Assembly (NCBI GenBank): GCA_964518205.1
Contig: CAZFDQ010000215.1
Span: 1 to 25,522 of the forward strand
Source: an uncultured Pseudomonadota bacterium
GTDB lineage: Bacteria; Babelota; Babeliae; Babelales; UASB340
DNA: 25,522 nt
Direction: 5' to 3'
A program made the position numbers and the translations under genes. The stretch's first letter is position 1. Every line of letters starts with the position of its first letter. The notes under the pieces were generated by a model. The model did not search any database. It was not told the DNA's origin and saw nothing but the letters and a program-made list of their open reading frames with translations. Below are positions 2,929 through 11,920 of this stretch, piece by piece.

Positions 2929-3069
2929 TATTATAGATTGCTATTAGTTGTATAACTCATTGTATATAATACTAATCTTAGTAAATGTTTTTTTTATTTT
3001 GTTCAATTTTTAATATTTTAGATAATTTTATTTGCAAAGCTTCTACAAATTTTTGAGCGACTGTTTCGA

Positions 3070-3939
3070 TTATAATAAAATTTTGTTTTTTATTTTCCAA
3101 GCGCTTTGTTGATGGTGCATTGTGTCAAGAACATTGGTAGCAATTTTTTGTAGCCATTCAGGAAATATTTTATTTAAAAGATCATGGCTTTGTAATAAAC
3201 TTAAAAATCTATATGGTTTTTTGTAAAGAAATTTCCTATGAATTTCTATATTAAACACATCAGAGAGTGTTTTTTTGTTAGGAATTAAATTTTGTTGGTA
3301 TAACCAGTCAATTAAATTATTATACAGTTGTTCTATTTTTGCCCGATGGGGACCTGGTGAACATAAATCAGATGATACGTATTCACAGCTTGATGTTGTA
3401 TATGGTCTATTATCCGGAGTGGGTATAACGACGATTCGTGATGTTTTTGGTGTGATGTGCTGTTTAAATGTTTGATGTAATTCAAAGAAAAGTTTATAAG
3501 CATAATTTCGAGCATGCATTTTGATTTCTTCTTGATTAGATTTAACAATTTGCGAAGGACAAATATTAAGAGGTAATTCCATTTGATTTTTAAGTGCTTT
3601 AATTATAATTGCAGGTATTGCTTCATGCAGATTTTTAAAAAAGTTATGATTATTAGGAAATAATAATTTTTTTACTTCTTTTAAAAAAACTACTTTGTCT
3701 TGATAGGTATTTATTATTTTTTTCCATTGTAACATTTCAATAGATATTAAAAGCTGAAGTGGAAATTTTAATTTAAACTGATTTATTTCTTTAAGTGGGT
3801 CAAAAGCTTCTTCTTTCTCTGGTAAATCTGAAAGAGTTTCGTGGCAGTATAAATCTATTTCATCAGGTTCTTGATTCATTCCAAATGCGTTTGACGAGAT
3901 TAAAATAAATAAAATAGATAAAAGCTTTTGCATTAACAT
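3070..3939 (-). CDS. Hypothetical protein with predicted signal peptide
   Basis: 289-codon ORF in AT-rich DNA with no competing long ORF; MQKLLSILFILISSNAFG looks like a Sec signal peptide. No family recognised. Confidence 0.7.
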   Translation of the reverse strand: MLMQKLLSILFILISSNAFGMNQEPDEIDLYCHETLSDLPEKEEAFDPLKEINQFKLKFPLQLLISIEMLQWKKIINTYQDKVVFLKEVKKLLFPNNHNFFKNLHEAIPAIIIKALKNQMELPLNICPSQIVKSNQEEIKMHARNYAYKLFFELHQTFKQHITPKTSRIVVIPTPDNRPYTTSSCEYVSSDLCSPGPHRAKIEQLYNNLIDWLYQQNLIPNKKTLSDVFNIEIHRKFLYKKPYRFLSLLQSHDLLNKIFPEWLQKIATNVLDTMHHQQSAWKIKNKILL

Positions 3940-4014
3940 ATTCTTTGATGTAATAAAAATTATTAGTTATTGTTACGGGGAGCTAATGCTAGCAAAAATT
4001 AATAAAAAGTAAAA

Positions 4015-4030
4015 GGCTTTATAAAATTTT
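4015..4030 (+). repeat. Left copy of 16-bp target site duplication
   Basis: GGCTTTATAAAATTTT, identical to 4544-4559, immediately before TGT at 4031. Confidence 0.9.
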
Positions 4031-4543
4031 TGTTAGAGCAAAGAGATAATTTTCTATTTAAGAGCAAAGTAAAAATTTCTTGTTGTGGCATAATAGTTGG
4101 GTTAAAAAATTCAATAACCAAAATGCCAAGCAACAAATACCTGTTTTTGAGAAACTTTTATAACAAAAGATCTCACAGCAAGCAGCGCCCCAAATGCTTG
4201 ATATAACTTATAGACAAGTTTGAAACAAATTAAAGAGAGATGAAAAAAACGGAGCTGCGAAGAATTTGTTATGAACCTATTTCTAGGCTTGAACAAGATA
4301 TGCATAGGCCTATTGATGGCTTTGATTTAGACAAAATCTTTTATTACAAGGAAGAGAGGGTTTTACAAAAAACAATTATCTGTTCCAAAAATAAAATTAT
4401 TATCCACGAGTCACTTAATGGAGAAATATCTCTTTTTATTAGGGATTTAAGCTTTGTTTCAACGAGATTTTGGTTCGACCAGTTAAACCATTCGCGGAAC
4501 TTTTTGCTTTGCTAAAACCGGAAATTTTCACTTTGATTTGACA
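4031..4543 (+). mobile_element. 513-bp non-autonomous, internally deleted IS1202-family (ISNCY) insertion sequence
   Basis: Ends 5'-TGT...ACA-3'. Two 16-bp inner repeats per end: left CAAAGAGATAATTTTC (4039-4054) and CAAAGTAAAAATTTCT (4065-4080); right, reverse-complemented, CAAAGTGAAAATTTCC (4520-4535) and CAAAGCAAAAAGTTCC (4496-4511). Flanked by a perfect 16-bp direct repeat and contains transposase remnants. Confidence 0.85.
4131..4446 (+). pseudogene. IS1202-family transposase remnant: N-terminal HTH joined to a C-terminal fragment, DDE core deleted
   Basis: Frame from 4131 reads QQIPVFEKLL*QKISQQAAPQMLDITYRQV*NKLKRDEKNGAA (stops at 4161 and 4221), matching the 'sQ.eAA..L.ls.RQV.rllkry...G' transposase HTH pattern. 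A shifted frame gives DMHRPIDGFDLDKIFYYKEERVLQ...KIIIHESLNGEISLFIR, resembling the family C-terminus. By-eye match. Confidence 0.75.
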
Positions 4544-4559
4544 GGCTTTATAAAATTTT
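4544..4559 (+). repeat. Right copy of 16-bp target site duplication; overlaps the last codons and stop of alaS
   Basis: GGCTTTATAAAATTTT directly after ACA at 4541-4543. On the minus strand it reads AAA ATT TTA TAA (K-I-L-stop of AlaS). Confidence 0.9.
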
Positions 4560-7157
4560 TAACCAATCTTTAATTTCTTTTTCTAAGTTAGCGTCAACTT
4601 TATTGCCGCCACCTTGAATCATATTAGGGCTTCCACCTCCGCGCCATTCAAACTTTTCTTTCAATAATTTTGTAAATTCTTTTAAATTAACAGCATTTTG
4701 CCATGTTTTGCTCAAAAAGCCAAAAAAGTTTATTCGGTTTGGAGCTTTTGAATTTGGAGAAATTATAAAATAAAAACCAGGAGACTTTTTTTCTATTTCT
4801 GTAGAAATTTGTTTAAATGTGGTTCCATCCATATCATCAAGTTGTAAAAATAAAAATGGAATTTTTCCAACAGGAGTGACCGAATCCTGCCATATTGGGA
4901 TTTGAACTTTAAAGAACTGTTTTTTAAGTTGTTTAATTTCACTCAATGCATATTGTAAGTTTTCTTGTTGTTTCTCTATAGCTTCTAAAATTTTATCTGG
5001 TTTTGCTTTAAATTGTTTACCTAAAGTTTTTGTTAAATCAAAACTTTGCTGGAAAACTTTTATAGATTGAGGCCCACTGACTGCTGTAATGCGGCGTGTT
5101 CCTGTACTTAAAGCAACTTCGTTTTCAATTTTAAAGCACCCAATCTCTCCAGTACTTTCAACATGTGTTCCTCCGCAAAGTTCGGCAGAAAAATCTGGAA
5201 TTTGTACAACACGAACCTGGGATGGATTATATTTTTCACCAAAAAAGGCCGTAACTCCTGCTTCTTGAGCTTTTTTTAATGTTGTATAAAAAATATTTAG
5301 TTTTACATTTTCTTGAATTTTGTTGTTTACAATATCTTCTACTTGCGCAACTTCTTCTTTTGTTAAAGCTTGTGGATGATTAAAATCGAAACGCAGATAT
5401 TTATCATCCACAAACGAACCTGCTTGTTTTATATGTTTGCCACAAACGTGAACTAAAGCTTCTTGTAATAAATGTGTTGCGGTATGATTTTTTTGAGTAT
5501 TAATTCTTTTATAATAATCAACTATACAGGTAACTTTATCTTCTACATGTATTTTAATAGGTTTTTCTTTTAGGGAAATTTTAACTGCTATGGCTGGATT
5601 TTCAGGTTTATCAGATTTATAAAAGCCAATTATTGGATGTGTTTCATCTTTAATTTTTATCCAACCTTGGTCACTTACCTGACCGCCGCTTTCAACATAA
5701 AAAGGAGATTGCTCTGTTACAATCCAAATATTATTTTTATCTTGATGCACAAAGTTTACTTTTGTTTCAACTTCTAAATTTTTGTATCCAACAAATTTTG
5801 TTGAAATTGCATCAGGTATTTGAGTTTTTTCTTTCTGATCTTTTATTTTTTTGCCAGATTGTTCTTTTTGTTTTTGCATTTCAGACTCAAAACCTTTTGT
5901 ATCTAACTTAAAACCTTTTTCTGTTGCGATCACTTTAGTCAGTTCGGTTGGAAAACCGTAAGTATCATAGAGTTTAAATATTTGTTTACCAGAAAGTTCT
6001 TTTTTATTTTCTTTTAAATTTTTTTCAAAATATTTTTCAATAATGTCTTGGCCTTGAATTAAATTTGTTGCAAAGCGTTCAACTTCGCTATCAAGTAGTT
6101 TTAAAATCAAATTTTTATTAGTTTTAAGTTCTTTGTAAGCAGCAGTAAAGAAACAAATAAATTCATTTGCCAAAGTTGTAAATAGTTTTTGATTATCAGT
6201 TAACTTTTGTGCAAAAAGAGCTGCTCGTCTTATGATTTTGCGTAAAACATATCCACGTCCGTCGTTTGATGGAGTACATCCATCTGCTATTAACAAAGAG
6301 CTTGAGCGAACGTGATCGCATAGAACATGAAAAGCAGCTTGAATTTCTTTTGAGCTTTTTGCATAATTTATTTTTGCTACTTCTTCTATTTTTTTTATGA
6401 GTGGAGCAAAGATATCGGTTCCAAAAACAGATTCTTTTTTCTGCATTACCATGCAAAGTCGTTCAAATCCCATTCCAGTATCAACACCTGTTTTGTTCAA
6501 TGTTTTTAAGATTCCATCTTTTTGCTTGTCATACTGCATGAATACAAGATTCCAGATCTCAGCAAATCTTCCACAATCACAAGAGGGATCGCAGTTTTTT
6601 GTTTTACAACCAATTTCCTTACCATAATCAATATGAATTTCGGAACATGGTCCACAGGGCCCAGTATCTCCCATTTGCCAGAAGTTTTCTTTTTCCCCTA
6701 GGCGGTAAATTTTTTCGGGAGGTATTCCAATATTTTTATTCCATAAATTATACGCTTCGTCGTCTGTTGTAAAAACAGAGACAACTAGGCTTTCTGCTGG
6801 GAGCCCCATTTCTTTTGTTAAAAATTCCCACGCATATTCAATAGCTTCTTTTTTGAAGTAATCGCCAAAAGAAAAATTACCCATCATTTCAAAGAATGTT
6901 AGGTGTCTGTTGGTAAGTCCAACTTCATCTAAGTCATTATGTTTTCCGCCTGCGCGGACACATTTTTGTATAGATGTTGCACGGGTGTAATCACGTTTCT
7001 CTCTTCCCAAGAAGGTGTCTTTAAACTGATTCATTCCGGCGTTGGCGAATAAAAGGGTTGGGTCTTGTGCTGGAATTAAAGAAGAACTAGGAACAATTGT
7101 ATGACCGTGCTTTTTAAAAAAGTTTAAAAATTTTTCACGAATATCGAAAGAATTCAT
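4548..7157 (-). CDS. alaS: Alanine--tRNA ligase
   Basis: MNSFDIREKFLNFF, DPTLLFANAGMNQFK, HLTFFEMMGNFSFGDYFK, GPCGPCSEI, EIWNLVFMQY, DTGMGFER, GRGYVLRKIIRRA, LYDTYGFP, PFYVESGGQ, editing motifs NHTATHLL and ELCGGTH, C-terminal GGG. ATG 7157 preferred over 7199. Confidence 0.98.
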   Translation of the reverse strand: MNSFDIREKFLNFFKKHGHTIVPSSSLIPAQDPTLLFANAGMNQFKDTFLGREKRDYTRATSIQKCVRAGGKHNDLDEVGLTNRHLTFFEMMGNFSFGDYFKKEAIEYAWEFLTKEMGLPAESLVVSVFTTDDEAYNLWNKNIGIPPEKIYRLGEKENFWQMGDTGPCGPCSEIHIDYGKEIGCKTKNCDPSCDCGRFAEIWNLVFMQYDKQKDGILKTLNKTGVDTGMGFERLCMVMQKKESVFGTDIFAPLIKKIEEVAKINYAKSSKEIQAAFHVLCDHVRSSSLLIADGCTPSNDGRGYVLRKIIRRAALFAQKLTDNQKLFTTLANEFICFFTAAYKELKTNKNLILKLLDSEVERFATNLIQGQDIIEKYFEKNLKENKKELSGKQIFKLYDTYGFPTELTKVIATEKGFKLDTKGFESEMQKQKEQSGKKIKDQKEKTQIPDAISTKFVGYKNLEVETKVNFVHQDKNNIWIVTEQSPFYVESGGQVSDQGWIKIKDETHPIIGFYKSDKPENPAIAVKISLKEKPIKIHVEDKVTCIVDYYKRINTQKNHTATHLLQEALVHVCGKHIKQAGSFVDDKYLRFDFNHPQALTKEEVAQVEDIVNNKIQENVKLNIFYTTLKKAQEAGVTAFFGEKYNPSQVRVVQIPDFSAELCGGTHVESTGEIGCFKIENEVALSTGTRRITAVSGPQSIKVFQQSFDLTKTLGKQFKAKPDKILEAIEKQQENLQYALSEIKQLKKQFFKVQIPIWQDSVTPVGKIPFLFLQLDDMDGTTFKQISTEIEKKSPGFYFIISPNSKAPNRINFFGFLSKTWQNAVNLKEFTKLLKEKFEWRGGGSPNMIQGGGNKVDANLEKEIKDWLKIL

Positions 7158-7211
7158 ATTACACCTGGCAAAAATTGGTTTTAAATCAATAAAAAACATT
7201 TAGTTGGTTTC

Positions 7212-11251: not shown

Positions 11252-11433
11252 GACTTTCTCCTTTTTTTTAATTTTATTTATCTTTACACTTTTATAATAT
11301 ATGTTTTGATTATCAAATAGCAATAGTTTGTTTGTTTTAATTAGGTGGTATTTTAAGTAGGAGCTGGTTATTTAGTTTGTATTTGGAATAATAGAGGGGG
11401 GTTGAATTGTTTGTGAATTATTATAGAGGTGTC

Positions 11434-11858: not shown

Positions 11859-11920
11859 AGTTTTCTCCTTTTTTTTAATAGAACTACAATACTACTTCTT
11901 ACATCTTCATTATATACTTG

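Follow-up and report, generated by a model that had tools for sequence, protein, structure and literature searches.

A decayed IS1202-family insertion sequence next to alaS in a Babeliales genome, probably placed by the promoter of the neighbouring gene

The 25,522-nt window analysed here (contig CAZFDQ010000215.1 of assembly GCA_964518205.1, to which all coordinates refer) contains a hidden element of 513 bp at 4031-4543, between alaS, which encodes alanyl-tRNA synthetase, and the next gene downstream. Taken together with related insertions in other genomes, the data indicate that this element is in all probability a decayed insertion sequence (IS) of the IS1202 family, of the kind that makes long target-site duplications, and that it was placed by the promoter of the downstream gene rather than by the end of alaS. 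What is of interest is not the element, an ordinary dead IS, but a rule at the level of the family, well supported in the relatives: insertion is oriented and takes place at the upstream edge of sigma70-like promoters.

The element starts with TGT and ends with ACA, and lies between two copies of a direct repeat, GGCTTTATAAAATTTT, at 4015-4030 and 4544-4559, which are identical at 16/16 positions. The repeat extends to 18 nt (4014-4031 = 4543-4560) merely by including the terminal A and the first T of the element. Three perfect direct repeats of at least 16 nt within 2 kb were observed in the window, whereas simulations of it with a first-order Markov model give 0.2. Each end of the element carries two copies of a 16-17-nt unit with the core GCAAAG..A.AA.TTTC, the outer of which begins at element base 8 (Table 1). 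All relatives likewise have two such units per end, and these are predicted to be bound by the transposase. The original prediction, an earlier reading of the same DNA, had described the TGT...ACA ends, the paired repeats and the perfect duplication, all of which are present in the sequence. It had also described HTH (helix-turn-helix) and C-terminal scraps as all that is left of a transposase within the 513 bp; these scraps have now been matched to residues 13-53 and 299-371 of a full-length relative.

A search of related genomes with the element identified its ends in several Babeliales genomes and, as a full-length parent type, a relative of 1,446 bp (G030:C33) that encodes a 415-aa transposase, P0001. 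This protein has HTH and rve domains and scores 391 bits on NCBIfam NF033594 (transpos_ISNCY_2; cut-off 250). It is 38.9% identical, over 80% of the length, to the annotated transposase of ISKpn21, an element listed among the IS1202-family members in both papers that define the family (Siguier et al., bioRxiv 10.1101/2022.12.17.520857; Harmer, Pong and Hall 2023, PMC10132070). Alignment of the full-length relatives reveals a DDE triad, an extra DD pair and a Q at E+7 (QLDGS, FIDDAT, VDRG, GRVER..TLQDRL), and the TGT...ACA ends and the two-site end layout are common to them. Flush duplications of 15-18 bp flank all 23 Babeliales insertions used below as comparators. Because the transposase of the full-length relative scores on NF033594 and resembles that of ISKpn21, these comparisons support the view that the element is a derivative of an IS1202-family IS, presumably of the long-duplication (ISTde1-like) type, with the subgroup set by duplication length. 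The same membership, including Tn7-like ends, had been put forward in the original prediction, and the parent-type transposase, the end layout and the duplication lengths bear it out.

The likeness to the long-duplication subgroup (ISTde1, ISCARN53/62/63) extends to the TGT...ACA ends, the extra subterminal transposase site at each end, the 15-17-bp duplications, a parent of ~1.4-1.5 kb, and a 407-432-aa HTH + DDE transposase with Q at E+7. Unlike those members, the window copy is without a catalytic core and is non-autonomous, and its host phylum, Dependentiae, is not among the phyla listed for the subgroup (bioRxiv 10.1101/2022.12.17.520857; PMC10132070). One result weighs against the subgroup assignment: in a check of the 5-10-aa indel associated with the ISTde1 subgroup, no extra residues were found in the stretch running from the second D to the E relative to the ISKpn21 transposase.

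The right-hand duplicate contains the alaS stop codon, and the original prediction had taken this as a sign that long-duplication members target gene 3' ends, where the long duplication would protect the stop codon of the host gene. Positions were therefore tabulated for 23 comparator insertions in which both ends and a duplication are present. Genome G058 contributes seven of them and G025 three; three more come from G030, where the duplications were used to match up contig ends, and ten are single copies in other genomes. Five full-length relatives without a duplication were left out of the statistics. Each site was restored in silico by removing the element and one repeat copy, and open reading frames (ORFs) of at least 90 aa were considered. 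Seven of the insertions lie within ORFs and 16 are intergenic. None of the 23 duplications overlaps the stop codon of such an ORF, and none of the insertions lies between convergent genes.

As no comparator duplication overlaps a stop codon, the inference of 3'-end targeting is contradicted. The right duplicate does hold the alaS stop, AlaS is intact, and a long duplication restores any short coding tail that it covers; these observations agree with the earlier idea. Set against them are the tabulated positions, the IRL-side neighbours described below, and, for the accompanying idea of a miniature inverted-repeat transposable element (MITE), the single copy of the element and the absence of its deletion junction from metagenome contigs. 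A MITE-like derivative of a family that targets gene 3' ends is thus highly improbable. The alaS stop within the duplication is most simply explained as a by-product of compactness: alaS is immediately followed by the predicted promoter of the next gene, so that the end of alaS falls among the 16 bp upstream of the -35 hexamer, and the duplication would restore both promoter and gene end.

The neighbourhood of the insertions is regular on one side only. In 15 of the 17 intergenic cases (the window included), the neighbour on the side of the left inverted repeat (IRL) is a divergently transcribed gene with its 5' end towards the element, and in 13 of those 15 the start of that gene lies 35-99 bp away. 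The side of the right inverted repeat (IRR) is irregular. The six bases that follow the duplication, reading away from the IRL, are T19 T16 (G8/T11) A15 C13 (A10/T9) in the 23 sites, and after a 17-bp spacer comes a TA...T box, often preceded by TG. Promoter likeness was scored as the number of matches to TTGACA and TATAAT with a spacer of 16-18 (maximum 12), at offsets from -40 to +40. This gives one sharp peak at offset 0, where the mean over the 23 sites is 7.78/12 as compared to ~4.6-4.9 at all other offsets; on the IRR side, the score at the mirror position is 5.26. The observed mean was reached by 0 of 20,000 random position sets drawn from the same loci, and 14 of the 23 sites score at least 8, as do 2.3% of background positions. 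The boxes in the relatives are presumably working promoters, as judged from their sequence.

Since the rule was derived from these 23 sites, fresh junctions were used for its test. Thirteen new left junctions were taken from metagenome contigs that carry homologous transposases (six further contigs were left out because the left flank was too short), and the best score was recorded for hexamers 15-18 nt from the IRL. The mean best score is 7.23, the like-for-like background is 5.84, and 4 of 20,000 random sets reach the observed value (p about 2e-4). Six of the 13 sites score at least 8, where 8.4% would be expected. The -35 part of the signal is also present within genes: at the intragenic comparator sites the -35-like hexamer scores 3.29, against a background of ~1.7. 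Three of these insertions, the G030 pairs C33/C99, C28/C47 and C27/C9, lie inside ORFs of 145-699 aa, and their duplication edges read TTTACA in two cases and TTGCAT in one, with poor -10 boxes. The G030 element may be recently active, with insertions not yet purged by selection.

Several observations weigh against the rule or narrow it. The -10 match at intragenic sites (3.57) is close to background (~3.2), as compared to 4.56 at intergenic sites, and the -10 enrichment may be due in part to survival in real promoters. Four of the new junctions, all of one IS (L166-L169), are without a promoter. The metagenome contigs may also be chimeric at repeats, which is why many of the contigs in the replication set are without duplications.

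These points bear on a reading in which there is no targeting at all: insertion would be random in A/T-rich DNA, purifying selection would act in a compact genome, and the association with promoters would be survivorship. Most surviving copies are indeed intergenic, the -10 enrichment is clear only at intergenic sites, and in genomes of ~1-2 Mb with short spacers any tolerated site would lie near a promoter. Survivorship would, however, tolerate any position upstream of the -35, so that a peak one nucleotide sharp at the duplication edge is left unexplained. It likewise fails to account for the strict orientation, with the IRL side at the promoter and the mirror side at background, and for the -35-like hexamer kept at intragenic sites. 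Random insertion followed by selection is accordingly considered very unlikely, and oriented insertion at the promoter edge is preferred.

In the window, the rule fits the relic moderately. The predicted promoter of the downstream gene has its -35, TTTACT, starting 17 nt from the IRL tip, and its -10, TAGCAT, 46 nt before the downstream ATG, which itself is 75 bp away from the duplication; the transcript is predicted to start near 3979. The genome has two further left ends, on contigs C286 and C60. Both lie 15-16 nt away from promoter-like boxes, in one case upstream of an FKBP-type gene (C286) and in the other upstream of a tRNA gene (C60, where the left end is 16 nt ahead of the gene). All three left ends of this genome score at least 8. 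Against this reading of the window stand the imperfections of its own site. The match is 8/12 and is displaced by 1 nt (it lies 17 nt from the IRL, not 16), and taken by itself it is not significant, as a best-of-four score of at least 8 occurs in ~8% of background. A consensus scan of 3850-4700 with a threshold of 9/12 did not list the minus-strand TTTACT/TAGCAT boxes; the three promoter-like sites that it did return are on the plus strand and show no excess over shuffles. TTTACT/TAGCAT is best described as a predicted promoter. Taken in aggregate with the behaviour of the relatives, it is nevertheless most likely that the site was chosen for the promoter of the downstream gene and not for the end of alaS.

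The state of the element is one of advanced decay. As compared to the full-length relative, the left 70 bp are 74% identical and the right 49 bp are 90% identical. The HTH piece contains two in-frame stops, and its start-codon region is deleted. The C-terminal piece is 34-35% identical to its counterpart and sits within a 91-aa ORF (4240-4515) that has no family match; the small ORFs of the element have no Pfam or NCBIfam match except for a weak one to NF033594 on the read-through HTH piece (Table 1). Residues 54-298, which make up the entire catalytic core, are deleted together with the C-terminal tail, and at least five separate lesions can be counted. Because the catalytic region is deleted, the window copy is a non-autonomous rather than a functional member of its family.

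The host is a metagenome-assembled genome (MAG) of Candidatus Dependentiae/Babeliales (1.48 Mb, 295 contigs, 90.7% complete), in which the element is single-copy. A blastn and motif census for other copies of the derivative yielded nothing but an HTH pseudogene (C288) and, on C286 and C60, two solo left ends. No catalytic-core transposase fragment of IS1202 type was found in this fragmented, 90.7% complete MAG, and no intact IS1202-type transposase was found in 11 searched genomes of the same taxonomic family. The metagenome contigs do not contain a 28-mer that spans the junction of the internal deletion. Given the single copy, the lack of a catalytic core in the MAG and the at least five lesions, the window element is a solitary, multiply damaged relic and not a proliferating MITE. 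The fragmentation and incompleteness of the MAG count against this conclusion to the extent that an intact copy could be unassembled.

The two solo left ends (C286:531-685, L002; C60:544-594, L003) each retain one of the two transposase sites and look like two different 26-bp deletions between direct repeats.

The original prediction of a MITE-like derivative holds as regards a non-autonomous deletion form; the single copy, the missing junction 28-mer, the at least five lesions and the failure to find a core speak against the remainder. Like MITEs, the window element is short, has no working transposase, and retains intact inverted-repeat ends and a target duplication. MITEs, in contrast, are multi-copy, fairly uniform and mobilised in trans, whereas here a single copy bears multiple lesions, and no partner was detected for it. 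It is unlikely that the 513-bp form was already deleted when an intact copy mobilised it in trans, which would be a true MITE event. Such an event would sit well with the recognisable state of both ends and all four transposase sites and with the perfect duplication, but there is only one copy, the other relics in the genome differ in structure, and the at least five independent lesions include stops in a fragment that is irrelevant either way. Nor does the perfect duplication date the event, since its copies lie in the end of alaS and in the stretch upstream of the -35, where both may well be conserved by selection. The damage in the relic would have arisen in place: after insertion, the DDE core would have been lost and further deletions and stop codons acquired.

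The empty site is reconstructed and not observed, which weighs against the proposed insertion event; it would consist of a single GGCTTTATAAAATTTT between ..GTAAAA and TAACCAAT... An exact 30-mer over this reconstructed site is absent from the metagenome contigs, and no joint that skips the element was found among contigs of four runs from two studies aligned to 3000-5600. The right junction is bridged without differences by contigs of all four runs. As contigs drop rare variants, this demonstrates only the presence of the filled form in those samples. A search for an empty site in relatives, which the original prediction had looked to as a check, also found none: the nearest AlaS among species-representative genomes (Babeliales MAGs) shares 60% identity at most, and synteny does not extend to the downstream gene, so that the nearest relatives are too distant for an orthologous empty site to be aligned.

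The parent type is ~1.45 kb long, has TGT...ACA ends with a pair of transposase sites at either end, and encodes a single 415-430-aa HTH + DDE (rve/TnsB-like) transposase. If the rule observed in the relatives applies, the insertion reaction likely involves staggered cuts 15-18 bp apart, of which the IRL-nearest is placed where a sigma70-type -35 hexamer has its upstream edge and the other lies further upstream. Placement of the IRL-nearest cut at the -35 edge would leave the IRL 15-18 bp upstream of the -35, with the transposase gene pointing away. The core promoter would stay intact and keep a copy of its own upstream stretch. The window copy would have inserted between alaS and the next gene in this way, with strand transfer 16 bp apart. 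Because the final three alaS codons and the stop fall within the duplicated stretch, AlaS would have remained unchanged.

How the site is read is less certain. One candidate is promoter DNA occupied or shaped by the RNA polymerase holoenzyme, a reading that comes close to an even chance and is favoured over direct reading of the hexamer. Consistent with this preference, several sites with a poor hexamer keep a good in-register (extended) -10: L128 (GATGCA, TG-n-TATAAT), L122, L108 and L112. It is these sites that favour a reader of the whole promoter, of the RNA polymerase type.

The alternative is that the transposase itself treats a TT(G/T)AC(A/T) hexamer located a constant distance from the cut as a pseudo-end, and that promoters are simply harmless places. 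This would explain why the IRR ends in TTGACA (inward TGTCAA) in nearly all copies, identical to the hexamer, why T1, T2, A4 and C5 are the most conserved positions, why the three G030 intragenic edges are hexamer-like with poor -10 boxes, and why intragenic sites in general combine a -35-like hexamer with a near-background -10. Sites with poor hexamers and good in-register -10 boxes weigh against such a mechanism, and the duplication beside the hexamer shows no further likeness to the inverted repeats. Direct hexamer reading thus appears possible but doubtful.

A more general model, which includes the holoenzyme-guided reading, can be offered only tentatively. Here, long-duplication IS1202 transposases would be single-protein TnsB-like enzymes guided to the upstream edge of sigma70 promoters by the promoter-bound holoenzyme or by the DNA shape that it imposes, the duplication would be the footprint of the UP-element region, and promoter and gene end would both be regenerated by the insertion.

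For long-duplication members of the IS1202 family, no target or conserved sequence was found in the papers that define it (bioRxiv 10.1101/2022.12.17.520857; PMC10132070), in contrast to the promoter-edge rule in the relatives analysed here, and a literature search found no promoter rule for the family. The short-duplication subgroup (ISAba32/ISAjo2) targets dif/XerC sites, with the IRL always next to the site (bioRxiv 10.1101/2022.12.17.520857; PMC10132070). These elements belong to the same family and likewise insert in an oriented manner, a short and constant distance away from a protein-binding site, with the IRL nearest. They differ in making 5-6-bp duplications at the XerC arm of dif-like sites, whereas the elements described here make duplications of 15-18 bp at the -35 hexamer.

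Outside the family, TnGBS integrative and conjugative elements and the ISLre2/ISKra4 elements insert in a fixed orientation 15-17 bp upstream of the -35 of sigmaA/sigma70 promoters and leave the core promoter intact (Guerillot et al. 2014, PMC3942029). The distance from the element end to the -35 is the same as in the relatives here. The transposases of the former are Mutator-like (p-MULT 3/4) and unrelated to the rve/ISNCY_2 type found here, making the present elements alike in action without being members of that group. In contrast to TnGBS/ISLre2/ISKra4, the whole 15-18-bp interval is here the target duplication.

Together, 36 independent junctions from one phylum show an oriented, nucleotide-sharp tie to the upstream edge of promoters. 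If the rule is true, it answers the target question left by the 2023 IS1202 papers for long-duplication members, and it adds a second, unrelated transposase lineage with TnGBS-type promoter specificity. With guidance by the holoenzyme or by DNA shape, insertion would represent a safe-harbour strategy that converges with that of the unrelated TnGBS/ISLre2 elements and has its parallel in the sister subgroup, which targets dif/XerC. The rule would suggest that one family can re-aim IRL-proximal targeting, at XerC on dif in one case and at RNA polymerase on promoters in the other. It would also explain how such elements persist in very compact genomes without harm to neighbouring genes. A possible use would be the placing of cargo next to promoters.

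Table 1. Features of the element and its surroundings in the window.
Feature	Position	Strand	Remarks
IS1202-family element, internally deleted, 513 bp	4031..4543	+	IRL at left; remnant transposase gene reads left to right
Left target-duplication copy	4015..4030	.	A/T-rich stretch lying just upstream of the -35 predicted for the downstream gene
Right target-duplication copy	4544..4559	.	alaS codons K-I-L + stop TAA
IRL	4031..4054	+	Terminal TGT + outer site 4038-4054; two-site layout as in all full-length relatives
Inner transposase-site repeat, left end (unit at 4064-4079)	4061..4079	+	
HTH remnant	4134..4256	+	Residues 13-53; tblastn 56% identity; NF033594 E 0.004 on read-through fragment
C-terminal transposase remnant	4291..4455	+	Residues 299-371, 18-residue internal gap
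IRR	4496..4543	-	Inner site 4496-4512, outer site 4520-4536, terminal ..TTTGACA
Predicted sigma70-like promoter of downstream gene	3986..4013	-	-35 TTTACT 4013-4008, 16-bp spacer, -10 TAGCAT 3991-3986
alaS, alanyl-tRNA synthetase, 883 aa, intact	4548-7199	-	Pfam tRNA-synt_2c E 1.7e-189, tRNA_SAD
Downstream gene, 289 aa	3070-3939	-	Signal-peptide-like N-terminus; no confident Pfam family

The alaS stop TAA (4548-4550) and the preceding K-I-L codons (4551-4559) all lie within the right duplicate, as the original prediction had stated. The alaS ORF is intact, and the C-terminus of its product (..DWLKIL) is as long as is normal among relatives (..NWLKK, ..EWIKKNK). The consensus scan of 3850-4700 for promoters and terminators found no terminator after alaS. 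No homologue of the 289-aa ORF was found downstream of alaS in 12 Babeliales relatives. On the plus strand, a promoter-like TTCACT-N18-TAAAAT (4527-4556) reaches from the IRR across the right duplicate and points antisense into the 3' end of alaS; such matches around this position are no more numerous than in shuffles.

Several of the related loci have unusual structures. In G246:C5 (L148, ~3836-3900), a complete copy is followed, one base past its right duplicate, by the start of a second IRL, so that the two stand in a head-to-tail tandem with a 15-16-bp spacer. The third copy in G025 (G025:C1:647246-649699; L129, L133) has a 17-bp duplication and lies inside a 600-aa ORF, and its transposase gene is interrupted by ~1.1 kb of other DNA. 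The five full-length copies without a target duplication (L144, L145, L149, L152, L154) have good inverted repeats. Some IS1202 members are likewise described as without a duplication, which has been ascribed to recombination between copies (bioRxiv 10.1101/2022.12.17.520857; PMC10132070). In a genome of the window's own taxonomic family, a 57-bp perfect palindrome (G004:C10:13733-13789; L015 1501-1558) consists of two facing IRL outer sites with 9 bp between them and no flanking duplication, and represents a minimal relic of this type of IS.

The other two perfect repeats of 16-18 nt in the window were considered as footprints of further elements and rejected, as inverted-repeat ends are missing from both. 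One of them, a perfect 18-nt direct repeat at 11255-11272 and 11862-11879 that reads AAGGAGAAA on the reverse strand, is ribosome-binding and 5' leader sequence common to two minus-strand genes and not the footprint of a transposon.

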